The notes under the pieces were generated by a model. It was not told the origin of the DNA. It saw only the letters and a list, made by a program, of their open reading frames with translations, and did not search any database. A program made the translations under genes and the position numbers. DNA of 64,000 nt, from IMG/VR virus record IMGVR_UViG_3300018426_001942, positions 32,001-96,000 of that record; one strand, given 5' to 3'. Below, in pieces: positions 24,734 through 38,969 of the stretch. Origin of the DNA: a virus. Position 1 is the first letter of the stretch; each line of letters begins with the position of its first letter.

Positions 24734-27403
24734 ATGAGTTACGTTGACGCTATGTTTGATCGCGATTCTGATATCATCAGAGTTGTAGAGCGTAAAGATG
24801 GAAAGAGACACTTTCACGAGTATCAAGCAAAGTACACATTCTACTACAAAGACGAGCGTGGTAAGTACAAAAGTGTGTACGGAGATCCCCTAACACGTAT
24901 TGTTTGTAAAAACACAAAAGACTTCCGCAAAGAAGTTGCCATCAATAAAAACAAAGAACTTTTTGAAAGCGATATTAATCCGATCTTTCAATGTCTAAGT
25001 GAGAATTATCTCAACCAAGATGCTCCTAAACTAAACATTGCGTTTTTCGATATTGAAACAGACTTTGACCCGGAGCGAGGCTTTGCTGATCCTAGTGATC
25101 CGTTTATGCCCATTACATCCATATCTGTATACTTGCAATGGATGGAAACTATGGTTTGTCTTGCTGTTCCGCCTAAGACACTTACAATGGAGCAGGCAAA
25201 GAAAGAACTTGAAGGTATCGAAAATGTAATGCTGTTTGAACGTGAAGGTGATATGATCGACACGTTCTTAACGCTGATTGAAGATGCTGATATTTTGTCA
25301 GGTTGGAACAGTGAGGGTTATGATATTCCTTACACTGTAAACAGAACAAGTCGTGTACTCAGCAAAGATGATACAAGACGTTTTTGTTTGTGGGGACAAC
25401 TTCCTAAGAAGCGTGAATATGAAAAATATGGGAAGCAAGCAGAAACATTTGACTTAGTAGGTCGTGTGCATTTAGACAGTCTAGAACTATATCGTAAGTA
25501 CACATACGAAGAACGACACTCATATCGATTGGATGCTATTGGTGAGATTGAAGTAGGCGAAAACAAAGTACCATATGAAGGTACATTAGATCAATTATAC
25601 AACAATGACTTCCGCAAATTTATCGAATATAACATACAAGATACCGCACTACTAGACAAACTAGACAAGAAGCTACGCTTTATTGATCTTAGCAATGAAC
25701 TTGCTCATGCAAATACTGTACTACTACAAACTACAATGGGTGCTGTTGCTGTTACAGAGCAAGCGATTGTAAACGAAGCACATAACAGAGGCTTACAAGT
25801 TCCTAATCGTCCTAGACGTGATGATGAGAACACACAAGCCGCAGGTGCATATGTTGCGTTTCCTAAAAAAGGCTTGCATAAATGGATTGGGTCAATGGAC
25901 TTGAACAGTCTATATCCTAGTGTGATTCGTGCGCTGAACATGGCTCCAGAAACAATCATAGGACAAATACGTCCAGAGATATCAGAAGCCCGTGTACACG
26001 AAGATATGACACTTAAAAAGAAGTCATTTGCAGGTAGTTGGGAAGGACGATTTAGCACAGAAGAATATGAAGCTGTTATGGAACAGAAGCGTGATGTTGC
26101 ACTAACTGTGGATTGGGAAAACGGAACCAGCGATGTATTAAGCGGTGCTGAATTATATAAACTAATTTTCGATAGTAATCAACCTTGGATGCTTTCATCT
26201 AATGGTACAATATTTACAACTGAGTTCGAAGGAGTTATTCCCGGACTACTAAAGAGGTGGTATGCAGAACGTAAAGAACTACAAGGTATGCTCAAAAAAG
26301 CAAAAGACGCAGGCAATGAAACTGAAATTGCATTTTGGGACAAACGGCAACTTGTTAAGAAAATTAATCTTAACTCTCTTTACGGGGCCATTCTTAATCC
26401 TGGTTGCAGATTTTTTGACAAAAGGATAGGACAATCAACTACACTTACTGGTCGTACTATTGTTAAACATATGAGTGCAGAAGTAAACAAAGTAATTACA
26501 GGTGAATACGATCATGTAGGCAAAGCAATTATATACGGTGATACAGACTCGGTTTACTTTAGTGCATATCCTGTATTAAAAGATGATATTGACGAAGGAA
26601 AAATTCCTTTTGATAAAGATACTGTGGTAACACTGTATGATCAAGTTTGCGAAGCGGCTAATACTACATTTTCAGACTTTATGGGTGAAGCATTTCATTG
26701 TCCAAAAAGTCGTGCAGAAGTTATTGCCGCTGGTAGAGAAATTGTAGCACAAAGCGGACTGTATATTACTAAGAAGCGTTATGCGGCACTAGTTTATGAT
26801 AACGAAGGCTTTAGAACAGACACAGATGGAAAACCAGGCAAAGTAAAAGCAATGGGCTTAGACTTGAGGCGTTCAGATACTCCTGTGTTTATGCAAGAGT
26901 TTCTAAGTGAAATTCTTCTTATGGTGCTTACAGATGTTCCACAAGAAGAAGTACTTGAACGTATAACTGTATTTAGAAAAGAGTTTGAAAATCGTCCAGG
27001 TTGGGAGAAAGGTTCGCCTAAACGTGCAAACAAGATTGGACACTATCAGAGACTAGAGCAAAAACAAGGCAAGGCAAATATGCCAGGCCACGTACGAGCA
27101 AGCATCAACTGGAATACACTAAAACGTATGAACGGTGACAAGTATTCGCAAGAAATTGTAGATGGTATGAAAGTTATTGTATGCAAATTAAAACAGAATC
27201 CTTTAGGTTATACAAGTGTCGCTTATCCAACAGATGAGCTGCGTATTCCTGAATGGTTTAAAGAACTGCCATTTGATGATTCAGCAATGGCAGAAACAAT
27301 TATCGATAACAAACTTGGAAACTTAATTGGTGTGTTAGACTATCCGCTAGAAGATACAAAGCAACACAATACATTTAACAGTTTGTTTGACTTTGGAGAG
27401 TAA
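24734..27403 (+). CDS. Family B DNA polymerase (gp43-like) with 3'-5' exonuclease
   Basis: DIETD, GWNSEGYD, YNIQD, DLNSLYPS, KINLNSLYG, YGDTDS, KKRY. Confidence 0.96.
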   Translation: MSYVDAMFDRDSDIIRVVERKDGKRHFHEYQAKYTFYYKDERGKYKSVYGDPLTRIVCKNTKDFRKEVAINKNKELFESDINPIFQCLSENYLNQDAPKLNIAFFDIETDFDPERGFADPSDPFMPITSISVYLQWMETMVCLAVPPKTLTMEQAKKELEGIENVMLFEREGDMIDTFLTLIEDADILSGWNSEGYDIPYTVNRTSRVLSKDDTRRFCLWGQLPKKREYEKYGKQAETFDLVGRVHLDSLELYRKYTYEERHSYRLDAIGEIEVGENKVPYEGTLDQLYNNDFRKFIEYNIQDTALLDKLDKKLRFIDLSNELAHANTVLLQTTMGAVAVTEQAIVNEAHNRGLQVPNRPRRDDENTQAAGAYVAFPKKGLHKWIGSMDLNSLYPSVIRALNMAPETIIGQIRPEISEARVHEDMTLKKKSFAGSWEGRFSTEEYEAVMEQKRDVALTVDWENGTSDVLSGAELYKLIFDSNQPWMLSSNGTIFTTEFEGVIPGLLKRWYAERKELQGMLKKAKDAGNETEIAFWDKRQLVKKINLNSLYGAILNPGCRFFDKRIGQSTTLTGRTIVKHMSAEVNKVITGEYDHVGKAIIYGDTDSVYFSAYPVLKDDIDEGKIPFDKDTVVTLYDQVCEAANTTFSDFMGEAFHCPKSRAEVIAAGREIVAQSGLYITKKRYAALVYDNEGFRTDTDGKPGKVKAMGLDLRRSDTPVFMQEFLSEILLMVLTDVPQEEVLERITVFRKEFENRPGWEKGSPKRANKIGHYQRLEQKQGKANMPGHVRASINWNTLKRMNGDKYSQEIVDGMKVIVCKLKQNPLGYTSVAYPTDELRIPEWFKELPFDDSAMAETIIDNKLGNLIGVLDYPLEDTKQHNTFNSLFDFGE

Positions 27404-27712: not shown

Positions 27713-27743
27713 TTACAGGAAAATGGCTGTAAGAGGAGGTAAC

Positions 27744-28160
27744 ATGAAGGTAGGATTTACATGTAGTACATTTGATCTACTACATTCTGGGCATGTCCAA
27801 ATGCTTAGGGAAGCAAAAGATCAATGTGATTACTTAATGGTAGGTTTACAAATGGATCCTAGTGTCGATAGACCTAATAAGAACCCTCCGATTCAAACTA
27901 TTGTTGAACGTTATACACAACTAAAGGCTGTAGGTTATGTTGATGAAATTATTCCATACGGAACAGAACAAGATTTAGAAGACATTCTACAACTTTATAA
28001 GATACACGTTCGCATACTTGGAGAAGAATATAGAGATAAAGATTTTACTGGTAAAGATATTTGTCGTCAACGAGACATAGAACTATATTTTAACAAACGA
28101 GATCATAGATTTAGTTCAAGTGGACTAAGAAAAAGTGTTGTAGAAAGAGAAAACAAATGA
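27744..28160 (+). CDS. Glycerol-3-phosphate cytidylyltransferase-like (TagD family)
   Basis: GFTCSTFDLLHSGH, VDEIIPY, RFSSSGLR; GGAGG RBS. Confidence 0.88.
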   Translation: MKVGFTCSTFDLLHSGHVQMLREAKDQCDYLMVGLQMDPSVDRPNKNPPIQTIVERYTQLKAVGYVDEIIPYGTEQDLEDILQLYKIHVRILGEEYRDKDFTGKDICRQRDIELYFNKRDHRFSSSGLRKSVVERENK

Positions 28161-28924
28161 AAATTCTTTTAACTGGACATAAAGGCTTCATTGGTTCAAT
28201 GTTGCTGAAACGGTTACAACGTAAAAAGCATATAGTTTATACAATAGACATTGCTGATGGTGCCGATCAAGATCTTTTATACTTTGATAAATGGCCGGAA
28301 CGTGTCGATCTTGTAATACATCTTGCAGGTAAAAGTGGTGTACGTGAAAGTTTAAAAGATCCAGCAGGCTATTGGATGAATAATATAGAAGCAAGCAGAC
28401 GTCTTTTTGAAAAGTTTGAAGATACACGCATTCTTTACGCAAGTAGCTCTAGTGCATATGAGCCTGACCTAAACCCTTATGCTGCTTCTAAGTATTGTTT
28501 AGAAGAATTAGCAGAACGTTATCCTAACACATTAGGTATGCGTTTTCATACAGTTTATTCGGATACATGTACAAGAGAAAATATGTTTTTTAAAAAACTA
28601 AGAGACGGAACTTTAGAATATGTAACAAAACACTATAGAGATTTTGTTCATTTAAACGATGTACTCGATGCTATTGAAATATTAATCAAAGCAGAATACG
28701 TCAAAGGTATAATAGATATAGGAACTGGTGTTCCAGTTAGGATTCAAGACCTAGCACCTGGACTACCCATTCGTCTAAATACCCCTGGAGAGCGTGAGTT
28801 TACTTGCGCAAACACAGAAAAAATTAAGGCCCTTGGTTGGAAACCTAAATACACGGTAGAAAACTTCTTGACAAAGCAAGGCAACGATAATATAATAAAC
28901 ATTACAAATGGAGAACCCTTATGA
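28157..28924 (+). CDS. NAD-dependent nucleotide-sugar epimerase/dehydratase
   Basis: TGHKGFIG, HLAG, YASSSSAY, YAASK, RDFVH. Confidence 0.9.
   Translation: MKILLTGHKGFIGSMLLKRLQRKKHIVYTIDIADGADQDLLYFDKWPERVDLVIHLAGKSGVRESLKDPAGYWMNNIEASRRLFEKFEDTRILYASSSSAYEPDLNPYAASKYCLEELAERYPNTLGMRFHTVYSDTCTRENMFFKKLRDGTLEYVTKHYRDFVHLNDVLDAIEILIKAEYVKGIIDIGTGVPVRIQDLAPGLPIRLNTPGEREFTCANTEKIKALGWKPKYTVENFLTKQGNDNIINITNGEPL
28868..28896 (+). promoter_or_regulatory. Consensus sigma70 promoter
   Basis: TTGACA-N17-TATAAT upstream of the clamp-TGT genes. Confidence 0.8.
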
Positions 28925-29649
28925 AAGATATTTTACAAGACATTGTAGCTCATACACATGCACTAGGTTTTTTGAATCTAGTTAAAATTAATAGTGATGA
29001 AGGTACATCAGTTGAAAGCATGGCAGATGATAGATCTGTTATCTTATCAGGTGAAACAAATGCACCTGTAGCAGAATTTAAAGGCACGTTTGGTATGCCT
29101 AATTTGGATAAACTTGCATTGCATTTAAAAAATCCTGAATACCAAAAAGATGCTAAACTAGAAGTAGTTGAAGCAGAACGTAACGGTGAAGTTGTTCCTA
29201 CACACATTCACTTTGAAAACGCTGCAGGCGATTTCCAAAATGATTACCGCTTTATGAACAAAGCAATTATTGAGGAAAAACTTAAAACTGTTAAGTTCAA
29301 AGGTGCATCATGGAATGTAACATTTAGTCCTAGTGTTGCAAGTATTGCACGTATGAAACTAATGAGTGCGGCACACAGTGAAGAGCCTACATTTAATGTT
29401 ACTACTAAGGATAATAATCTAGTGTTTAGCTTTGGTGATGCAAGCACACACGCAGGTGAGTTTGTTTTCCAGCACGGTGTAGAAGGTAGTCTTCAACACA
29501 CTTGGAGTTGGCCAGTAGCACAAGTTCAAAGTATTCTTAATCTAGATGGTGATATTACTATGAGCATTTCGGATCAAGGTGCTATGATGATTTCAGTAGA
29601 TAGCGGCATGGTAAAATACGATTACATTCTTCCAGCACAGAGCAAGTAA
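28921..29649 (+). CDS. Probable DNA sliding clamp (gp45/PCNA-like)
   Basis: 242 aa alpha/beta; C-terminal YDYILPA resembles PCNA-type ends; near PolB; clamp loader present in window. Confidence 0.6.
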   Translation: MKDILQDIVAHTHALGFLNLVKINSDEGTSVESMADDRSVILSGETNAPVAEFKGTFGMPNLDKLALHLKNPEYQKDAKLEVVEAERNGEVVPTHIHFENAAGDFQNDYRFMNKAIIEEKLKTVKFKGASWNVTFSPSVASIARMKLMSAAHSEEPTFNVTTKDNNLVFSFGDASTHAGEFVFQHGVEGSLQHTWSWPVAQVQSILNLDGDITMSISDQGAMMISVDSGMVKYDYILPAQSK

Positions 29650-29652
29650 CGA

Positions 29653-31194
29653 ATGAATAAAGACTTAACAGCAACACAAAACGATTATGCGATCTTTCTT
29701 CCTGCACTAAGTGGTTTCTATGCAACTTATGTAGGTAAGCAACGTTTTGATGAATATGTAGATAAGTCACGTATTCCTAGCAACTTTGCTAACGGTGTAG
29801 AGAGTTTAAACTATCTTAACAAACAAGAAGGTCAATTCCAATACAAATGGACACTGTATTCAGCAGGACACGCTGAATTAGACATCAACAAACACGCACC
29901 TAAAGAAGATATGGTGCGAAACAGAGATAGAGAAAATACTTGGCTACTGGGCGACTCGGGTGGCTTCCAAATTGGTAAAGGTGTATGGGAAGGTGACTGG
30001 AAAGATCCAAACTGTCCAAAAGCACAAAAGAAACGTGACGGCGTTCTCCGTTGGATGGATGCTTATATGGATTACGGTATGATACTTGATATTCCTGCTT
30101 GGGTTTCACGTTCACCTGCAGGTGCAAAAGCAACAGGTATTAGCACTTATCAAGATGCTGTAAATGCTACACGTATTAATAACGACTATTGGATGAAGCA
30201 TAGAACAGGTGCTTGTAAGTTCTTAAATGTTTTACAAGGTGAAAATCATGCTGATGCAGAGGATTGGTATCAGCAAATGAAAGACTACTGTGATCCTAAA
30301 AAATATACTGACCATTTTAACGGTTGGTCAATGGGTGGACAGAACATGTGCGACATTCATTTGGTTCTTAAACGTCTAGTTGCATTGAGGTTTGACGGAC
30401 TATTGGAAAAGGGTGTGCATGACGTAATGCACTTCTTAGGTACTTCGAAACTAGAATGGGCTACATTACTAACAGACGTTCAACGAGCTGTTCGTAAGTA
30501 TCACAATCCAAACTTCCAAATTACATTTGATTGTGCTTCACCGTTTCTTGCTACAGCAAACGTACAGATTTATATTCAAAATGAAACCCAAGATAGAAGC
30601 AAATGGGTTTATAGAATGGTTCCGTCTGTTGATAATAAAAAGTATGCAACTGACAGCAGATTATTTAGAGATGCTGTATTACAAGATGGTATTTTTGCTA
30701 ACTTCGAAGATAGTCCGTTAACTACTGGACTTAAGGTATCAGATGTATGTACATATGCACCTGGTGATTTAAACAAAATAGGTAAAGAAGGAAAGACCTC
30801 CTGGGATAGTTTTTCATATGCTATTCAAATGGGCCATAATGTTTGGAGTCATATTAATGCTGTACAAGAAGCAAATAGACAGTACGACAATGGAATTATA
30901 CCGGCAATGCTTGTTGAAGAACGCTTTGACAGGGTATTTTTTAGAGATGTTGTGGAAGCAATATTTGCAACTGACAACAGAGATGAAGCAGAAGCGGTAA
31001 TAGAAGAATTTAGCCGTTTTTGGATGTCTATTATAGGTACTAGAGGTGCTGTTGGTAAGAAGACTGTCAACTCTAGTACATACTTTGATAGTTTATTTGA
31101 AGTTGAACCTACTGTTTCAACTGAAGATGAAGAGCTAGACGAATCAAAATTAGAGGTACTTGAAGATGAGCAACTTCACGGAGAAGCACAATAA
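29653..31194 (+). CDS. TGT-superfamily guanine transglycosylase (DpdA-like)
   Basis: LGDSGGFQ, MILDIP, NVLQG, HFLG, TFDCASP: the catalytic motifs of the TGT barrel; clustered with folE and queE. Confidence 0.8.
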   Translation: MNKDLTATQNDYAIFLPALSGFYATYVGKQRFDEYVDKSRIPSNFANGVESLNYLNKQEGQFQYKWTLYSAGHAELDINKHAPKEDMVRNRDRENTWLLGDSGGFQIGKGVWEGDWKDPNCPKAQKKRDGVLRWMDAYMDYGMILDIPAWVSRSPAGAKATGISTYQDAVNATRINNDYWMKHRTGACKFLNVLQGENHADAEDWYQQMKDYCDPKKYTDHFNGWSMGGQNMCDIHLVLKRLVALRFDGLLEKGVHDVMHFLGTSKLEWATLLTDVQRAVRKYHNPNFQITFDCASPFLATANVQIYIQNETQDRSKWVYRMVPSVDNKKYATDSRLFRDAVLQDGIFANFEDSPLTTGLKVSDVCTYAPGDLNKIGKEGKTSWDSFSYAIQMGHNVWSHINAVQEANRQYDNGIIPAMLVEERFDRVFFRDVVEAIFATDNRDEAEAVIEEFSRFWMSIIGTRGAVGKKTVNSSTYFDSLFEVEPTVSTEDEELDESKLEVLEDEQLHGEAQ

Positions 31195-31369
31195 AATTGC
31201 AAATTATTTGCAAGAGTTGTATAAACGTCACAGATTACTTGACGACGAAATAAAAGAGTTGTACAATAAGTTTGCAAATGATGGAGAGATTAACCGTAAA
31301 AAAACTAAAAAACTTTGGCTCAAAGATGAAATACACAGGCTTGAAACAGAATTGAAGGACCTAGGATAA
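31166..31369 (+). CDS. DUF465/YdcH-like small coiled-coil protein
   Basis: HRLLDDEI...KKLWLKDEI. Confidence 0.6.
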   Translation: MSNFTEKHNKIANYLQELYKRHRLLDDEIKELYNKFANDGEINRKKTKKLWLKDEIHRLETELKDLG

Positions 31370-31554
31370 TGCCATTACCAGAAGGAAGAACCCCATTAAC
31401 AGACGGCGATATGGTTGTATTGCTACACAACATGGCTCGACAAATGGGCGAGCGTGATAAAACTATGGAAAGTGAAATGCGACAGGTTGCTGATCGTTTT
31501 TCAGAACTTTCTAAAGCGGCAGGTGTTGCACAGCATAAGGCACAACAAGGATGA
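31369..31554 (+). CDS. Hypothetical protein
   Basis: 61 aa; coupled start/stop on both sides. Confidence 0.6.
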   Translation: MPLPEGRTPLTDGDMVVLLHNMARQMGERDKTMESEMRQVADRFSELSKAAGVAQHKAQQG

Positions 31555-32093
31555 AAAGAGATTACGAAACCGGCGTACAGGAAAATGTAAAATACTTTGT
31601 AGGTACTGAAGTTGAAAAAACTCCTGCCTACGGTATGCGTACACTGTTTGTTACAGATGTACAACCTGTAGATGAAATTGAATTTTGGTACGAAAAAGAA
31701 CAGTGCGAACATATCTTCTTTGGTGCTAATCACAGTTTTAACCCTGAAGATCCGTGTAATGACGAAAGTTTATACGATTACTATCGTAAATGGGAAGACA
31801 TGATCGAATACTTCTTAAATAAAGACATTCTTTGCACACTTGATATTCCTCTTAGTGCAGCACAAGGTACGTTCCACGACGGCGGACTATGTGAAAAAGA
31901 TAACTTTATTCCGCAAATTCGTGTTCCATTGCCTTACACGAAACTTTGGAACTACAACACAATGATTAAGATTGATGATGTAGATTTTAAGGCAACTAAC
32001 CCAGGTGTTTGGTGTCATAGTTTACACGATCTGTTAGATAGAGAAAAATTTACAGATTGGAGCAAATATGGACTTGACAAAGTTATTGAATGA
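31551..32093 (+). CDS. Hypothetical protein within the deazaguanine cluster
   Basis: 180 aa; GTEVEKTPAYG.RTLFV, HIFFGANHSF, KIDDVDFKATNPGVWCH. Confidence 0.7.
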   Translation: MKRDYETGVQENVKYFVGTEVEKTPAYGMRTLFVTDVQPVDEIEFWYEKEQCEHIFFGANHSFNPEDPCNDESLYDYYRKWEDMIEYFLNKDILCTLDIPLSAAQGTFHDGGLCEKDNFIPQIRVPLPYTKLWNYNTMIKIDDVDFKATNPGVWCHSLHDLLDREKFTDWSKYGLDKVIE

Positions 32094-32102
32094 AAGTATT
32101 AT
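32074..32102 (+). promoter_or_regulatory. Sigma70-type promoter
   Basis: TTGACA-N17-TATTAT, 7 nt before the ATG at 32110. Confidence 0.65.
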
Positions 32103-32109
32103 ATAAACA

Positions 32110-32562
32110 ATGCAACGAGAATCCTATCACGACTACATGGGTCGTAGATTAAGAGAAGAAAGTATGAATGACAGAATAAAAAATGCAGAACGTAGTATTT
32201 GGGTAACCTTTTCAAAAGAAGGTGTACATATGTACCCAGGTGCTGACACTGACCCTAAATTAGCAACTGGCGATTGGGATGATGTAAGTTTCCTCGGTGT
32301 TCCACATCGTCATATTTTTCATTTTCGTGTTCGTATTGAAGTATTTCATAACGACCGCGACATTGAATTCATTCAGTTTAAACGCTGGATGCAACGACTC
32401 TATGACGTCGAAGGCGTACTAGAGTTAAATCACAAGAGCTGTGAGATGATCGCAGATGACTTGTACCAAGAGATTTCTACAAAGTATCCCGGCCGGTTTG
32501 TAGAGATTAGTGTCGCTGAAGACAACGAAAACGGCTGTTCCATTTTTTACCCTAAGAGCTAG
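32110..32562 (+). CDS. QueD/PTPS-like T-fold protein (DpdL-like, LxxxHRHxF)
   Basis: EGVH...FLGVPHRHIFHFRV, DIEF, SCEMIA, VAEDNENG; lacks the QueD CxxxHGH Cys. Confidence 0.75.
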   Translation: MQRESYHDYMGRRLREESMNDRIKNAERSIWVTFSKEGVHMYPGADTDPKLATGDWDDVSFLGVPHRHIFHFRVRIEVFHNDRDIEFIQFKRWMQRLYDVEGVLELNHKSCEMIADDLYQEISTKYPGRFVEISVAEDNENGCSIFYPKS

Positions 32563-32584
32563 TGAGACAAAAGGAAAACACACT

Positions 32585-32815
32585 ATGGCTATTCAATTCA
32601 ATAAGCCCGCTTATGACAAAATCTTTAGAGATTTGGAAAACTTTAAAGATTTCTGTAGATTTACTGGTGATGCAAAAAATGTTGCATTTGTCTTTGATGA
32701 AAAAAATTTATATGACGAAAAGTCATATGCATGGAGAGCTTATCAACGGCACGTGAATCATTTAAAAGCAAAAAGCCGCAAACTTGGTAAGAGTGTTAAC
32801 CAAAGGAGAAACTAA
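32585..32815 (+). CDS. Hypothetical protein
   Basis: MAIQFNK start after AAGGA; FRDLENFKDFCRF. Confidence 0.6.
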   Translation: MAIQFNKPAYDKIFRDLENFKDFCRFTGDAKNVAFVFDEKNLYDEKSYAWRAYQRHVNHLKAKSRKLGKSVNQRRN

Positions 32816-33861
32816 TGACTGTATACATTGTAGACATTGAAGCTGTAGACACACGTTATACTAAACAGTGGAAGGAACATCTTCCTAATCAGCTTCGTCG
32901 TGCTACAAATGTAAGTGTCGAAGTTATCAGTGGTGGAGAAACGCCTCAGGCTACAACGCCTGGGGCATTTCTAAACTTTGGCGGTACTAATGTGTATAAG
33001 AGTAAACAACTCGAGCAGATTGGTGAAATGTTTTGCAAAGGTAAAATTAAAAATGGAGATTATTTCTTATATACGGATGCGTGGAATCCAACTGTTATCC
33101 AACTTAAATACATGGCTGAGCTCTTGGGCGTGGACATTAGAGTCGGTGGCTTATGGCATGCTGGTTCTTATGATCCTCACGATTTCTTGGGTAGGTTAAT
33201 TGGTGATAAACCTTGGGTACGTCATGCAGAGCAATCAATGTACGAATGCTTTGATGATAACTTTTATGCAAGTGATTTTCATATAGATCTTTTTGCTGAA
33301 AGTTTAGATATTAATGACAGCAAAACACACCGTGTTGGTTGGCCTATGGAGTATCTAAAGAACAGTTTAGATAGTTATAAAGGTATGGAGAAGCAAAATC
33401 TTATACTTTTCCCGCATCGTATTGCTCCCGAGAAGCAAGTAGAAATTTTCCATGATCTAAAAACCCAACTTCCAGAATACGAATTTGTTGTATGTCAAGA
33501 ACAGACACTTACTAAAAATGATTATCATAATTTGCTAGGTGAAGCAAAAATGGTGTTCAGTGCTAACTTACAAGAAACACTTGGCATTAGTTGGTATGAA
33601 GGTGCTCTTGTAGATGCTATTCCTATGGTGCCTGATAGACTGAGCTACAGTGAAATGGCACTAGGTGAGTTTAAGTATCCAAGTGAATGGACTGAAGATT
33701 ACTTTGCTTATAGAAAGTACAGAGGTTTGCTAGTTGATAAGATTCGTCATTACATGGAAAACTACAACGATTATCTTGTAAGTTTAGAAAAACAAAGAAG
33801 AAAACTTAATAAAGAGTTTTTCTCAGGTGAAGCAATTTATAATAGGATTAAACATGGCTAG
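32815..33861 (+). CDS. GT-B (GT4-like) glycosyltransferase
   Basis: ILFPHRIAPEKQ and E-x7-E motif QETLGISWYEG, PMVPDRLSYSEM. Confidence 0.85.
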   Translation: MTVYIVDIEAVDTRYTKQWKEHLPNQLRRATNVSVEVISGGETPQATTPGAFLNFGGTNVYKSKQLEQIGEMFCKGKIKNGDYFLYTDAWNPTVIQLKYMAELLGVDIRVGGLWHAGSYDPHDFLGRLIGDKPWVRHAEQSMYECFDDNFYASDFHIDLFAESLDINDSKTHRVGWPMEYLKNSLDSYKGMEKQNLILFPHRIAPEKQVEIFHDLKTQLPEYEFVVCQEQTLTKNDYHNLLGEAKMVFSANLQETLGISWYEGALVDAIPMVPDRLSYSEMALGEFKYPSEWTEDYFAYRKYRGLLVDKIRHYMENYNDYLVSLEKQRRKLNKEFFSGEAIYNRIKHG

Positions 33862-34192
33862 TAATGATCAATACACTGATAACACATTTAGTTTTACATT
33901 AGATGCAAACAGTTTATTTACTTCTTCAGCTGATTCAACTATAACAATTAACACAACAGCTGATACAACATATACGTATGATACAGACTCAAGCACATAT
34001 TCATTTAATTTAGATAACATTACAACTAGTTGGGATAGTAATAGTATTTCACCTAGTGAAGTTGAAAGAATGTGCATGCAATATCCTGCATTAGAAAAGG
34101 TATGGCGTAACTTCAAAAGTGTTTACGATATGTGTAAGCAGGATTACGAAGGCAAGAAAAAGTCAGGAGAAGTAGATGACCTTCCTTTCTAA
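33854..34192 (+). CDS. Hypothetical protein with Thr/Ser-rich N-terminus
   Basis: Low-complexity T/S/D region then YPALEKVWRNFKSVY. Confidence 0.6.
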   Translation: MASNDQYTDNTFSFTLDANSLFTSSADSTITINTTADTTYTYDTDSSTYSFNLDNITTSWDSNSISPSEVERMCMQYPALEKVWRNFKSVYDMCKQDYEGKKKSGEVDDLPF

Positions 34193-34655
34193 GATTATGG
34201 ACAAACTCGGTAGACGTCGAGTAATTACAGATAGAGACAGTAATGAACCTTACTTGATTAGATTTTATTTGTTTCTTAAGGACAGAAAAAACTTTCCTTT
34301 TAATATAACATTACATAAAGTTTTAAAAAGCGATGAAAAAGTTTTACACGATCATCCATGGAACTATGCAACATTTATTATTAAAGGTGGTTATTGGGAG
34401 CATATTCCTATTCGATCTCAAGAAGGTTTTGTAGTAGGTGCAACTCGAGTTTGGAGAGGACCTGGACACTTTCGTTTTAGAAAAGCAGATGATCTACATT
34501 GGCTTGAACTTGAAAAAGATGAGAACGGAAATGAAATACCTTGTTGGAGTTTATTCTACATGGGCAAGAAAGCACAAGATTGGGGCTTTCTTCCTTTTGT
34601 AGCAACACAAGGTTACAGATGGGTAAACCATAAAAAATATTTATATAAGGAGTAA
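34176..34655 (+). CDS. Cupin-fold protein (HDHPW motif)
   Basis: LHDHPW...GGYWE...HWLEL metal-binding cupin pattern. Confidence 0.7.
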   Translation: MTFLSKIMDKLGRRRVITDRDSNEPYLIRFYLFLKDRKNFPFNITLHKVLKSDEKVLHDHPWNYATFIIKGGYWEHIPIRSQEGFVVGATRVWRGPGHFRFRKADDLHWLELEKDENGNEIPCWSLFYMGKKAQDWGFLPFVATQGYRWVNHKKYLYKE

Positions 34656-34656
34656 T

Positions 34657-34929
34657 ATGGGCCAGTATGATGATTTAGTAGAAAGGAGACGTTTACAACT
34701 AGCTGCAGAGGAATGGGCTAACACTGTAAAAGCAATTCATGCACATAGAATAGATTCTATGCATTACGATAATTTTCCTGAAGATACAGAAAACGGAAGT
34801 GTTATTGATATTGAATATAACAGTGGACTAATACATCGTACATGTTCAGATGGAAGAAAAAGAGTTCTTGGAAGCAAGATAAAAACTGAAGAATTACTAC
34901 AAAATTATGAGAGGTCACAGCGTGGTTAA
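34657..34929 (+). CDS. Hypothetical protein
   Basis: 90 aa; AAGGAG RBS. Confidence 0.65.
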   Translation: MGQYDDLVERRRLQLAAEEWANTVKAIHAHRIDSMHYDNFPEDTENGSVIDIEYNSGLIHRTCSDGRKRVLGSKIKTEELLQNYERSQRG

Positions 34930-35479
34930 AAAACAGTATTATGATTGGGCAGATATTGAACGTGCATGTTTAAGTATTGCATTGCAAATGTACAATGACA
35001 ATTGGAAGCCTGATTACATCGTAGGCATTACACGTGGCGGCAATATTCCCGCTACTATATTATCACATATGTTAGGTATACGTTGCGAAGCACTTAAAGT
35101 TAGTTTGCGTGACGATGATAGCGAATGCGAATCTAACTGTTGGATGAGTGAAGATGCATTTGGTTATGTAGATGAAGAAGAACGTAAAATTCTTAAAAGT
35201 CGTTGGGACTTAAACAAACGTAAAAACATTCTTATTGTAGACGACATCAATGACACAGGTGCAACATTAAATTGGATCAAACAAGATTGGATGAGTAGTT
35301 GTCTACCGCAAGAAACAAGTGGATGGGATAGTGTATGGCATCGTAATGTTCGATTTGCGGTTATTACTGATAATCTTTCTAGTGAGTTTAAGGGCACAGT
35401 AGACTACAGTGTACACGAAGTTAATAAAGCAGAAGAAGATGTTTGGCTAGTTTATCCGTGGGAGAATGTAGGACAATGA
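34922..35479 (+). CDS. Type I purine phosphoribosyltransferase (Gpt/Hpt-like)
   Basis: IVGITRGG, ILIVDDINDTGAT PRPP-binding loop, WLVYPWE. Confidence 0.88.
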   Translation: MVKKQYYDWADIERACLSIALQMYNDNWKPDYIVGITRGGNIPATILSHMLGIRCEALKVSLRDDDSECESNCWMSEDAFGYVDEEERKILKSRWDLNKRKNILIVDDINDTGATLNWIKQDWMSSCLPQETSGWDSVWHRNVRFAVITDNLSSEFKGTVDYSVHEVNKAEEDVWLVYPWENVGQ

Positions 35480-35853
35480 AAGTAGATAACTTAGAACTAG
35501 CACAACAAGAAAATAGAGCACCATGGTCTACTGTTTCTTTAAACACAAGAGACTTTGTTGTTTATGAAGATGGGTTTCCTGTTACAGACGGGCATACTCT
35601 TGTTGTACCTAAGGAATCTACAGAAGAAAATTTACTAAAATGTTTTAAGTTTGCACTTGCTATGGGACAACAAAATGTAGAAGCCAGTAATAACATTACA
35701 GGGTTCAACATTGGTCTAAATATAGGTACTAGTGCAGGACAAACATGCATGTATCCACACGTACATTTAATATTCCGTAGAGATGGGGATTGTCCGGACC
35801 CTGTTGGTGGTGTACGTAATGTAATACCGGGCAAAGGCAACTACAAAAAATAA
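35476..35853 (+). CDS. HIT-family nucleotide hydrolase
   Basis: FPVTDGHTLVVPK, GFNIGLNIGTSAGQT, YPHVHLI (first triad His replaced by Tyr). Confidence 0.85.
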   Translation: MKVDNLELAQQENRAPWSTVSLNTRDFVVYEDGFPVTDGHTLVVPKESTEENLLKCFKFALAMGQQNVEASNNITGFNIGLNIGTSAGQTCMYPHVHLIFRRDGDCPDPVGGVRNVIPGKGNYKK

Positions 35854-35863
35854 GGAAAGGAAA

Positions 35864-36070
35864 ATGGAGTTGAGAGAAAACTTAATTAATGCGGCAAAGA
35901 AACACGCAGAGGCGGAGATTGAATTGCACAAAACTAACATTGAAGTCTATATGCAAAAAGTAGTAGGCATCGGCGAACACTCTGATATTGTTGAAACGAT
36001 ACAGAAAGAACTAGATGCAATGGCTACGGCAAATGACCGTTTAGAAATGTTGGAAAAGTATTTTGGTTAA
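35864..36070 (+). CDS. Small hypothetical phage protein
   Basis: NIEVYMQKVVGIGEHSDIVETI motif, which I recall from marine T4-like phages. Confidence 0.7.
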   Translation: MELRENLINAAKKHAEAEIELHKTNIEVYMQKVVGIGEHSDIVETIQKELDAMATANDRLEMLEKYFG

Positions 36071-36087
36071 AACCATAGATAATATAC

Positions 36088-36116
36088 TTGACAAAAACCT
36101 AAATAAAGTATATAAT
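36088..36116 (+). promoter_or_regulatory. Consensus sigma70 promoter for folE-queE
   Basis: TTGACA-N17-TATAAT. Confidence 0.85.
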
Positions 36117-36158
36117 ATACAATTAATAGACATCCTCGTCTATAACTCGGAGAATTAA

Positions 36159-36848
36159 ATGAGCAAAAGTAAAGAATTAACTGTACGTCTTAAAGATGCT
36201 GGTATCCGCTATTGGGCAGGTGACAACATTTCAGAAGTATTTCAGAAAGGCGACAAAGAAGAACTTATTGAAGAAGCAACTGTAGCATTTGAAAATGTTT
36301 TAGATACGTTGCTAATTGATAGACATAACGATCCTAATTCACAAGGTACAGCAAGACGTCTTGCTAAAATGTACTTTAATGAACTAATGGCTGGACGTTA
36401 TGATACTATTCCTAGTGCAACAGCGTTTCCGAACGATAGCGATGAACGCTACGAAGGTATGCTAGTTGTACGTAGCGAACTTAAAAGTGTATGTTCGCAT
36501 CATCATCAACCAGTAAGCGGTGTAGCGTATATTGGTATTATTGCAAGTGCAAAACTTATCGGTCTTTCAAAGTATACACGTATTGCACAGTGGTGTGCTA
36601 GACGTGGTACACTACAAGAAGAACTTGCAAATGAAATTGCAAAACAAATTCAACTTGCAACTAATGCAGATCACTTAGGTGTTTATATTCAAGCAACACA
36701 CGGTTGTTGTGAGAATAGAGGCATAATGGCAACTAGTTCATTGACACAGACTACTGTACTAAAAGGTGCATTTAAGAATGATCCTGGTACAAAGAAAGAG
36801 TTCTTTGACAATATTAAATTACAACAAGAATTTAGTTGTGGAAAGTAG
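36159..36848 (+). CDS. folE: GTP cyclohydrolase I
   Basis: TARRLAKMY, SVCSHH, IGLSKYTR, LQEEL, HGCCENRG. Confidence 0.93.
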   Translation: MSKSKELTVRLKDAGIRYWAGDNISEVFQKGDKEELIEEATVAFENVLDTLLIDRHNDPNSQGTARRLAKMYFNELMAGRYDTIPSATAFPNDSDERYEGMLVVRSELKSVCSHHHQPVSGVAYIGIIASAKLIGLSKYTRIAQWCARRGTLQEELANEIAKQIQLATNADHLGVYIQATHGCCENRGIMATSSLTQTTVLKGAFKNDPGTKKEFFDNIKLQQEFSCGK

Positions 36849-36854
36849 GTAGAT

Positions 36855-37739
36855 ATGAAACTACGTTATTCAGAAGCATTTTATAGTGTACAAGGTGAAG
36901 GAAAGTTTGTAGGAGTACCTAGTGTGTTCCTACGTACATTTGGTTGTAACTTTCGTTGTATGAACTTTGGATTAGAACGTGGAACACCTGCAAGAGCAGA
37001 TGGTGTAAAACATAATCCAGAAGTAAAAAAATTACTAGATAGTAATATTATCAACACTGTTGAAAAGTTTGAGGACTTGCCTGTAATACATACAGGTTGT
37101 GATACATATGCAAGTATCTATCCTGAGTTTAAAAAGTTTATGATGGATAGAACTGTAGATGAAGTTGTTGAACATTTATTGTCACTTACTCCAGAAGGCA
37201 AGTGGACAATGGACAATGGACAAGATATCCATTTAATATTTACAGGCGGCGAGCCTTTGTTAGGATGGCAAAGGTTTTATGCTGATTTATTAGAACATCC
37301 ACGTATGCAGGATTTGAAAAATGTTACATTTGAAACAAACACTACACAAAACTTACGAGACGATTTCAAAGAGTATCTCAGCAATCAAGACAGATTTAGA
37401 GTTACTTGGAGTTGTTCCCCAAAACTTTCAGTTAGCGGAGAACGCTGGGAAGATGCTATTAAGCCTGATATTGCTAGTCAGTATATCGATGTTGACGGTA
37501 GTGACCTTTACTTTAAGTTTGTTGTCGCTGACGAAACTGATGTTATTGAAGCTGGCAGGGCTGTGGAGAGTTATAGAAACGCCGGGGTGGAATGTCCGGT
37601 ATATCTTATGCCGCTGGGTGGAAGGAGCGAAGAATACAAGCTCAACATTCAAGAAGTGGCTGAACTCTGTATGGAAAAAGGATGGCGCTTCACTCCAAGA
37701 CTCCACATCGACTTATTCGGAAATGCGTGGGGGACTTGA
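36855..37739 (+). CDS. queE: 7-carboxy-7-deazaguanine synthase (radical SAM)
   Basis: FYSVQGEG, FLRTFGCNFRC...(insert)...GCDT, TGGEP, ETN, CSPKL, RLH. Confidence 0.9.
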   Translation: MKLRYSEAFYSVQGEGKFVGVPSVFLRTFGCNFRCMNFGLERGTPARADGVKHNPEVKKLLDSNIINTVEKFEDLPVIHTGCDTYASIYPEFKKFMMDRTVDEVVEHLLSLTPEGKWTMDNGQDIHLIFTGGEPLLGWQRFYADLLEHPRMQDLKNVTFETNTTQNLRDDFKEYLSNQDRFRVTWSCSPKLSVSGERWEDAIKPDIASQYIDVDGSDLYFKFVVADETDVIEAGRAVESYRNAGVECPVYLMPLGGRSEEYKLNIQEVAELCMEKGWRFTPRLHIDLFGNAWGT

Positions 37740-38237: not shown

Positions 38238-38569
38238 TGTTATACAACATAGACGATATTGGTGGAAAATTAGTAAAAGATAATGAGCAATATCAACTAT
38301 TTGATAACACTAGTTTAAAAAATCTTGTAGTAAGTAAAACTAAATTACGAGCAGGTCAGTCTACTAACGGTCATAGACATGCTGGTCAAGAAGAAGTATA
38401 CATCTTTACAAAAGGTCAAGGACAAATGGAACTTGATCATAAAATATTTGATGTAAAAGAGGGAGACGTTGTTTTAATAGAAGACAATGTATTTCATAAA
38501 GTCTATAATACAGATGGACCATTTTGGTTAGAATTTATTTGTGTGTTTGATGGGAAACGCTATGCGTGA
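38237..38569 (+). CDS. Cupin domain protein
   Basis: GHRHAGQEEVYIF..G.G, GDVVLI...FHKVYN. Confidence 0.85.
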   Translation: MLYNIDDIGGKLVKDNEQYQLFDNTSLKNLVVSKTKLRAGQSTNGHRHAGQEEVYIFTKGQGQMELDHKIFDVKEGDVVLIEDNVFHKVYNTDGPFWLEFICVFDGKRYA

Positions 38570-38969
38570 TGATTTAATGGTGCAACAGCAAGTATCTACT
38601 GTATGGCAACATATGGTAGGTGTTATTTGTTTAAATCAAACAAACCGTAAACAAGTAAAAAGAGTTCTTCCTGCTCTCTTTACAGCATGTCCTACTCCAA
38701 TACATTTACTTAATACTACTTCTGAAACAATAAAAAATATTATTAAACCGTTAGGTATGGTAAATGTTCGTGAAAAAAGACTACGTAAGATGTCAGAAGA
38801 TTACTTGACATGGGACGGAAATGATGCTACAATGTTATATGGAATTGGGAAATACGGTAGTGACAGTTATCGATTGTTTTACAAAAATGAGATACCTGAC
38901 AACATCAGCGACCATGAATTGAAACGTTATGTACAGGAAGAACTAAATGGCAACTTATATACTAGTTGA
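38562..38969 (+). CDS. HhH-GPD DNA glycosylase, MBD4-like
   Basis: VQ...W...VICLNQT, IKPLGM, LYGIGKYGSDSYRLF, DHELKRY; parallels the MBD4 glycosylase domain. Confidence 0.8.
   Translation: MRDDLMVQQQVSTVWQHMVGVICLNQTNRKQVKRVLPALFTACPTPIHLLNTTSETIKNIIKPLGMVNVREKRLRKMSEDYLTWDGNDATMLYGIGKYGSDSYRLFYKNEIPDNISDHELKRYVQEELNGNLYTS
38805..38833 (+). promoter_or_regulatory. Internal sigma70 promoter upstream of RNase H
   Basis: TTGACA-N17-TACAAT with TGn extension. Confidence 0.55.

Follow-up and report, generated by a model that had tools for sequence, protein, structure and literature searches.

FolE, QueD and QueE make 7-carboxy-7-deazaguanine (CDG), and once DNA has been replicated, DpdA replaces guanine in it with a 7-deazaguanine (PMC10516641, PMC10164549). 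DpdL is distinguished from QueD by its signature, which reads LxxxHRHxF instead of CxxxHGH, and was proposed to be a decarboxylase that converts CDG to 7-deazaguanine (PMC10516641). In the DNA of Cellulophaga phage phiST, which encodes FolE, QueD, QueE, DpdL and DpdA3, plain 2′-deoxy-7-deazaguanosine (dDG) was measured at full replacement (PMC10516641). All eight 7-deazaguanine DNA bases catalogued in that study are small, and no word starting with "glycosyl" appears in the paper (PMC10516641). Here we describe a 7-deazaguanine gene cluster with an embedded glycosyltransferase (GT) in the IMG/VR virus record IMGVR_UViG_3300018426_001942, a 151,964-bp contig of an uncultured marine giant phage. 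The stretch analyzed, hereafter the window, is 64,000 nt long and comprises positions 32001–96000 of the contig, which has a GC content of about 36% and is estimated to represent about 43% of the genome. We interpret the cluster as a QueC-less, DpdL-type module for 7-deazaguanine DNA modification in which the GT is a fixed member and would place a sugar on the deazapurine; we give this interpretation close to an even chance of being correct. A sequence-only reading of the window had already proposed a glycosylated deazaguanine: the QueC-less cluster and the GT in that proposal are real, and the sugar on the base is still a prediction.

HuiG from the huimycin cluster of Kutzneria, an enzyme of the GT4 clan (PF13439), transfers N-acetylglucosamine (GlcNAc) from UDP-GlcNAc onto a free 7-deazapurine (bioRxiv 10.64898/2026.04.15.718813). 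HuiG and the GT of the window, compared here by description and not by sequence, share the GT-B fold and the GT4 clan, and the substrate of HuiG is a 7-deazapurine from the FolE/QueD/QueE route. Unlike the GT of the window, HuiG is encoded in a secondary-metabolite cluster that includes QueC but no DNA-insertion enzyme, and its acceptor is O-methylated preQ0. The T4 alpha- and beta-glucosyltransferases are phage GT-B enzymes that transfer a sugar onto hydroxymethylcytosine (hmC) after replication, allowing the phage to escape restriction. They differ from the GT of the window in belonging to other GT families and in using a pyrimidine side-chain hydroxyl, and they were absent among the 50 PDB matches listed in each of two structural searches with the GT of the window. 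To our knowledge, all known glycosylated DNA bases are pyrimidines, i.e., hmC in T-even phages, hydroxymethyluracil derivatives, and base J. The literature searched, which was mostly outside subscription journals, contained no report of DNA with a glycosylated deazaguanine.

The nearest cultured relative of the cluster is found in Pseudomonas jumbo phage PA5oct (Wroclawvirus, EST35_0311-0325), which has the same row of genes for family B DNA polymerase (PolB), a clamp-like protein, DpdA, GT, DpdL, QueE, and flap endonuclease (FEN)/RNase H. Identity to the proteins of the window was 51% for PolB, 34% for DpdA, 44% for GT and 61% for DpdL. Unlike the window, the fetched PA5oct locus showed no gene for FolE, a phosphoribosyltransferase (PRTase), HIT, cupin or sugar activation. 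The DNA of PA5oct resists five restriction enzymes and is attacked by END nucleases, which recognize modified G, the base itself not being identified in that study (PMC12191111); the PA5oct genome paper is silent on DNA modification. The dpdA and dpdL genes of Acidovorax phage ACP17 gave no dDG in E. coli (PMC10516641). The evidence from PA5oct and ACP17 fits a hypermodification of G that needs more than DpdA and DpdL, and it does not identify a sugar.

Every gene between 24.7 and 40.4 kb of the window is on the plus strand, and the genes are tightly packed. The genes around which the proposed module is built are the following:

29653–31194, plus strand: predicted long-form DpdA-like DNA guanine transglycosylase, 513 aa (DSGGFQ motif, fold of tRNA-guanine transglycosylase (TGT))
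31551–32093, plus strand: X, a conserved 180-aa protein between DpdA and DpdL
32110–32562, plus strand: DpdL, a putative QueD paralogue of 150 aa, assigned by the motif LGVPHRHIF
32815–33861, plus strand: GT4-type GT-B glycosyltransferase, 348 aa, assigned from an AlphaFold2 (AF2) model and structural matches
36159–36848, plus strand: GTP cyclohydrolase I (FolE; PF01227, 1.4e-37; NF006824, 2.8e-40)
36855–37739, plus strand: QueE-like radical SAM enzyme (CDG synthase; phrog_2076, 3.3e-50, full length)

By megablast, the region matched none of the phage records. Single-sequence searches of Pfam, PHROG, NCBIfam and PDB with the 513-, 348-, 180- and 150-aa proteins returned nothing, save for a PHROG of unknown function matching the 150-aa protein; these four central proteins were characterized using alignments and predicted folds.

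The GT is part of the deazaguanine system of the DpdL type and is co-inherited with it across distant phages. We collected 80 related marine viral loci with a DpdA identity of 72–86%, 59 of which had enough downstream sequence and 32 of which reached QueE or the flap nuclease. The order DpdA-X-DpdL-GT was kept in 58 of the 59 loci, and the 32 longer loci contained PRTase (31 loci), QueE (31 loci) and FolE (30 loci). Synteny of the GT with the TGT-like gene and DpdL, proposed as a check in the sequence-only reading, extends to at least six other phage lineages as well as to Methylobacterium genomes, with the gene order varying. The row is QueD-FolE-X-DpdA-GT-DpdL-QueE in ACP17, FolE...GT-DpdA-DpdL-QueE in Xanthomonas phage X1, DpdL-GT-FolE...QueE in Sinorhizobium phage Phosso (DpdA being elsewhere), and QueE-PRTase...QueD-FolE...DpdA-DpdL-GT in Synechococcus phage BUCT-ZZ01, where the GT was recognized by profile (5e-37). 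Among GTDB genomes, DpdL was located directly upstream of the GT in 12 of 13 loci with a full-length GT; three of the loci were in Methylobacterium assemblies that are not labelled as metagenome-assembled genomes (MAGs). Phage pf16 possesses QueC and lacks DpdL; its fetched locus had no GT, and the phage was absent among the tblastn matches of the GT in the phage collection. In metagenomes, the clusters at 90% identity number in the thousands for each core protein.

The product of 32110–32562, previously called a QueD-like T-fold protein, is DpdL and not QueD, as judged from its signature. The residues L62-G-V-P-H66-R-H68-I-F70 follow the pattern LxxxHRHxF, and H40, H66, H68, H80, E86, E112 and E137 were invariant in a comparison with phiST gp040 and 11 other homologues. 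Identity was 61–66% to the proteins of PA5oct and Phosso, 52% to that of ACP17, and 30–32% to that of phiST. An alignment with seven QueD proteins was weak (hhalign, 54%, E 1e-4, 46 C-terminal columns), and no T-fold protein was matched when the DpdL profile was searched against PDB. The presence of FolE, QueE and DpdA together with the absence of QueC is the context expected for DpdL. Because DpdL is present, the expected base is 7-deazaguanine, of the dDG type, rather than CDG; the decarboxylase role is the one proposed for DpdL.

Two types of DpdL were observed in otherwise syntenic marine loci, one with 56–90% and the other with about 38–42% identity to the DpdL of the window. The second type (L015:11527-11874, L082:12072-12383) resembles the protein of Synechococcus phage BUCT-ZZ01 and carries the motif FLENEHRH.

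No true QueD (PF01242) was detected in the 152-kb contig, and neither were QueC, QueF or ThyA; the absence of QueC and QueF, noted earlier for the window, therefore holds for the whole contig. None of five related contigs contained QueC above its cut-off. QueD was present in two of the five long related contigs, about 50–60 kb from the cluster. The first 284 bases of the contig (G000:C1:1-284) showed a 79% match to the flank of QueD in a related contig (L091:1-2013), which suggests that the QueD of this phage is probably located about 1.2 kb past the assembled left end.

In the translation of the QueE-like gene, the cysteine triad is formed by C31-x3-C35 within GCNFRC and, after about 46 residues, by C82 within CDT. 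Five NCBIfam QueE models matched the protein in part, below their cut-offs. The insert of about 46 residues between GCNFRC and CDT is atypically long. Both the QueE motif of the B. subtilis type, Cx3Cx2C, and the Cx14CxxC type named by NCBIfam have a far shorter spacing.

An AF2 model of the 513-aa protein, based on an alignment of 30 relatives, had a mean predicted local distance difference test score (pLDDT) of 80 and a predicted template modelling score (pTM) of 0.83. The top 50 Foldseek matches of this model in PDB were all Zymomonas mobilis TGT (E 4e-8 to 5e-7), with a target-normalized TM-score of about 0.5. The active site of DpdA comprises a general acid/base Asp in DSGGxQ, a base-recognition Asp and a nucleophile Asp (PMC10164549). 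D101 (in DSGGFQ), D146 and D293 were invariant across 30 members of the 513-aa family, and they aligned to the invariant D75, D111 and D263 of a DpdA2-like family from ACP17, pf16, X1 and BUCT-ZZ01 (hhalign, probability 87%, E 4e-6). From these alignments, we infer that they correspond to D95, D130 and D256 of the S. Montevideo enzyme. The DpdA of ACP17 is 34% identical to that of Vibrio phage VH7D, a validated DpdA2 (PMC10516641). The match of the 513-aa family to the putative DpdA3 of phiST (gp042), a tentatively assigned transglycosylase of only 259 aa, was weak (29%, E 6e-4, 93 columns), and since the match to the DpdA2-like family was better, the 513-aa protein appears to represent a separate long-form DpdA clade. 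Residues 463–513 form an acidic, disordered tail. Taken together, the motif and the model indicate a DpdA-like guanine transglycosylase with an intact triad of catalytic Asp residues, for which guanine exchange in DNA is predicted. A search of viral contigs with the PA5oct-type DpdA as a query yielded zero loci.

The GT had 1186 relatives among 1.8 billion cluster representatives. Its AF2 model, based on 60 aligned relatives, had a pLDDT of 95.5 and showed a full-length GT-B fold with two Rossmann domains. The nearest structures were the GT4 enzymes BshA, MshA, PglA, sucrose-phosphate synthase and glycogen synthase (Foldseek E 1e-10 to 1e-8), and superposition on sucrose-phosphate synthase, BshA and MshA gave VIA Z values of 25–27 and a root-mean-square deviation of 2.7–3.3 Å over 298–317 residues. 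PF00534 matched 34 of 60 family members (best 5.7e-9), and the family profile matched the glucosyltransferase AmGGT (PDB 8xsg) at 4e-5. Across the 60 members, E262 was invariant, E254 was at least 90% conserved, and R202 and K207 were nearly invariant; by analogy with GT4 enzymes, we take the two glutamates to be the EX7E pair and the Arg and Lys to bind the donor diphosphate. The best viral structural match was the ACP17 protein (TM 0.92). In the queuosine mannosyltransferase GTDC1/QTMAN, an N-terminal DUF3524 (PF12038) domain is combined with a GT1 domain; DUF3524 was found in none of the 60 members at E 0.01, and GTDC1 was absent among the structural matches listed; a distant kinship with GTDC1 within GT4 may nevertheless be compatible with the lack of DUF3524. 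On the evidence of the model, the 348-aa protein is confidently classified as a GT4-type GT-B glycosyltransferase, a type of retaining enzyme that depends on NDP-sugars, and its transfer activity is predicted. Prediction of a complex between the GT and residues 1–465 of DpdA gave a score of 0.00, which weighs neither way.

QueC is absent from both phiST and the window, and the two share FolE, QueE, a DpdL with the LxxxHRHxF signature, a TGT-fold transglycosylase, and clustering beside replication genes. They differ in that phiST has no member of the GT family genome-wide and no X, whereas in the system described here the GT and usually X are fixed, as is a PRTase in the marine clade.

The folds, motifs, gene content and co-inheritance are observed; all of the chemistry that follows, including which atom accepts the sugar and which sugar is donated, is inferred from them. 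GTP would be converted to CDG by FolE, QueE and a QueD whose gene is outside the contig, and DpdL would strip the carboxyl group from CDG to give 7-deazaguanine. After replication of the phage DNA, the long DpdA would put the deazapurine in place of G, and the GT4-type enzyme would move a sugar from a nucleotide-sugar, possibly made by the host, to this deazapurine. The acceptor could be the free base, which would be inserted afterwards, in the manner of HuiG, or it could be the base once it is part of the DNA, just as hmC is for the T4 glucosyltransferases. The small-molecule GT4 enzymes among the nearest structures fit the free-base route and do not prove it. The PRTase would most likely recycle the released guanine to GMP and further to GTP. 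A hydroxymethylase of the ThyA type, which might have provided a different acceptor, is absent from the contig. The same proposal can be extended to abundant marine jumbo phages, PA5oct, ACP17 and others, in which a DpdA-DpdL-GT core would replace G with a glycosylated 7-deazaguanine, with a bacterial form in Methylobacterium; we rate this broader version slightly below an even chance.

Several observations weigh against a sugar on the deazapurine. 7-deazaguanine lacks a hydroxyl on a side chain. This leaves N2, O6 or a ring carbon as acceptors, or else the carboxyl group of CDG, and we know of no GT4 enzyme that uses any of these on DNA. The decarboxylase activity of DpdL is itself proposed and unproven. 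The GT of the window, taken alone, had no Pfam match at E 0.01. No member of the GT family was found in the genomes of phiST-like phages, RHph_I1_18, Ahp1 and Bakedbeans, although DpdL is present in them, which means that the GT is not needed for the DpdL pathway; phiST shows that this pathway runs to complete dDG replacement without it. The phiST result, the lack of an obvious acceptor group on 7-deazaguanine, and the similarity of the GT to small-molecule enzymes rather than DNA enzymes favor an alternative in which the DNA carries plain dDG (or its CDG counterpart, dCDG), as in phiST, and the GT glycosylates another molecule (protein, cofactor, precursor or host component) or has a non-catalytic role beside DpdA and DpdL. 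We consider this alternative unlikely, though deserving of serious attention: the adjacency of DpdL and GT has outlasted gene shuffling across very distant phages and Methylobacterium genomes, the EX7E, Arg and Lys residues are retained in diverse members of the GT family, and dpdA and dpdL of ACP17 were insufficient in E. coli.

The purine PRTase, whose homologue also occurs in the BUCT-ZZ01 cluster, would have a larger part in a nucleotide route. In such a route, a TubE-like reaction of the PRTase with phosphoribosyl pyrophosphate and CDG or 7-deazaguanine would yield a 7-deaza-GMP analogue, as in the synthesis of tubercidin, the host would make the dNTP, PolB would incorporate it, and the GT and the HIT protein would act on nucleotide intermediates. 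QueC-less tubercidin clusters do combine CDG, a PRTase and a decarboxylase, and HIT proteins are a family of nucleotide hydrolases. We nevertheless find this route improbable, because DpdA is always there and its active site is intact, the fetched loci of PA5oct, ACP17 and X1 contain no PRTase, and salvage of guanine is a simpler account of this enzyme. Hutinet et al. moreover argue that every known phage deazaguanine enters DNA after replication (PMC10516641). Finally, the location of the GT beside the deazaguanine genes might be a coincidence, its target being another modified base, such as a hydroxymethyl-pyrimidine of the T-even style. Glucosylation of hmC by GT-B enzymes is the classic example in phages, and a cyanophage "DNA alpha-GT" was a weak structural match of the GT (rank 40, E 6e-6). 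This is the least credible of the alternatives, with very little probability left to it: the 152-kb contig (about 43% of the genome) has no thymidylate-synthase-type hydroxymethylase, and chance does not explain the repeated adjacency of DpdL and GT.

If a sugar is indeed placed on the deazapurine, the product would constitute a new chemical class of DNA hypermodification and the first sugar-bearing purine known in DNA. It would affect the evasion of restriction and CRISPR, any attempt to sequence or clone DNA of this kind, and enzyme tools. It would also be a candidate for the modified G of PA5oct, a therapeutic candidate phage, and could explain the failure of ACP17 dpdA and dpdL in E. coli. 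The gene set is very common, and the prediction can be tested in phages already cultured.

The remaining assigned genes of the row are the following:

24734–27403, plus strand: PolB (PF00136, 1.9e-36; PF03104, 6.8e-20), at the head of the conserved row
27723–28160, plus strand: nucleotidyltransferase of the cytidylyl/adenylyl-transferase family (PF01467, 1.1e-12; phrog_7878, 5.8e-36)
28157–28924, plus strand: short protein of the short-chain dehydrogenase/reductase (SDR) type, similar to nucleoside diphosphate-sugar epimerases/dehydratases (PF01370, 8.9e-23; phrog_540, 1.7e-45)
28921–29649, plus strand: conserved 242-aa clamp-like protein (phrog_12062, unknown function)
34176–34655, plus strand: cupin-like protein, 159 aa, accessory (phrog_4786, labelled cysteine dioxygenase, 1.1e-32, sole match)
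34907–35479, plus strand: purine PRTase of the xanthine/guanine type, Gpt-like (PF00156, 1.4e-15; NF006613 xanthine PRTase, 3.6e-13)
35443–35853, plus strand: HIT-family nucleotide hydrolase, HinT-like, accessory (PF01230, 2.6e-6; HinT, 1.6e-11)

The sequence-only reading had listed PolB followed by a cytidylyltransferase, an epimerase, a TGT-like gene, a GT-B glycosyltransferase, a PRTase, a HIT hydrolase, FolE and QueE; hidden Markov models and folds identified each of these genes, all on the plus strand. The list was mostly right and left out X. The region was also placed correctly, except that its start at 27744 lies 21 nt inside the first open reading frame (ORF), which begins at 27723. 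The product of this ORF had been called TagD-like, and while the family is as described, the best NCBIfam match was domain II of RfaE, a heptose-1-phosphate adenylyltransferase (TIGR02199, 1.6e-19, under its cut-off). The "cupin" said to follow the GT corresponds to the 159-aa ORF with the cysteine dioxygenase label, and a 121-aa ORF without a family intervenes between the two.

The nucleotidyltransferase and SDR genes are facultative and outside the core. In 71 loci with a complete interval from PolB to the clamp-like gene, the nucleotidyltransferase was present in 40 and the SDR in 46; both were present in 34 loci, one in 18, and neither in 19. The GT was seen in 17 of the 19 loci with neither, contrary to the earlier suggestion that these sugar-activation genes serve the GT; they may vary the donor sugar in some lineages. 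Variation was also seen downstream, where the cupin-like ORF was present in 20 and the HIT gene in 24 of the 32 loci reaching QueE or FEN, and small ORFs varied too.

X had no match in Pfam, PHROG, NCBIfam or PDB, including in profile searches of PDB and Pfam, and no relation to QueD was detected. A profile search of 5.8 billion proteins yielded more than 7600 relatives, all hypothetical. X was present in 58 of the 59 marine loci, and ACP17 has a homologue within its cluster (28% identity), as has PA5oct (3e-58) 27 kb off the cluster; X was undetected in Phosso, X1, BUCT-ZZ01 and phiST.

The 242-aa protein is the "probable clamp" of the sequence-only reading, and its relatives are labelled as a sliding clamp (Phosso) or as a virion structural protein. 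The protein was 36% identical to EST35_0314 of PA5oct and 32% identical to the "sliding clamp" of Phosso, and it had zero PDB matches by sequence. According to its record annotation, EST35_0314 was found in virions by mass spectrometry.

One marine contig (L084:1651-6914) keeps the long DpdA and has lost X, DpdL, GT, FolE and QueE; its DpdA is directly followed by a small ORF, HIT, FEN and a 156-aa ORF. This is either a natural loss variant that uses host precursors or an assembly artefact. In M. frigidaeris JCM 32048 and Methylobacterium sp. EM32, a trio of long DpdA, DpdL and GT with 27–45% identity was observed (L107, L108, L109), with no FolE or QueE nearby. In L108, the sole one scanned, genes next to the trio encode UmuC, a RecD2-type helicase and a NUMOD3 homing-endonuclease-like protein. 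A 211-aa ORF between DpdA and DpdL in Methylobacterium had a weak match to the YhhQ/Vut_1 transporter (8e-4, below cut-off).

Near-complete phage relatives, in which the module is 56–90% identical and has the same order, sit inside bacterial and archaeal MAGs. They include a 335-kb contig from a Neomarinimicrobiota MAG (L101, PBPT01000016.1) and two labelled Euryarchaeota (P0496 and P0501), and their placement reflects either mis-binning or a hint of the host.

Just past the module, a 142-aa ORF at 38541–38969 on the plus strand is similar to the helix-hairpin-helix (HhH)-GPD/endonuclease III (EndoIII) family (PF00730, 1.2e-8; nth, 1.8e-6), and it has a counterpart in 11 of the 32 related loci. 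In END nucleases of the host, an inactivated EndoIII domain serves to detect hypermodified bases (PMC12191111), and by this likeness, the short EndoIII-like protein of the phage could be a glycosylase or a decoy.

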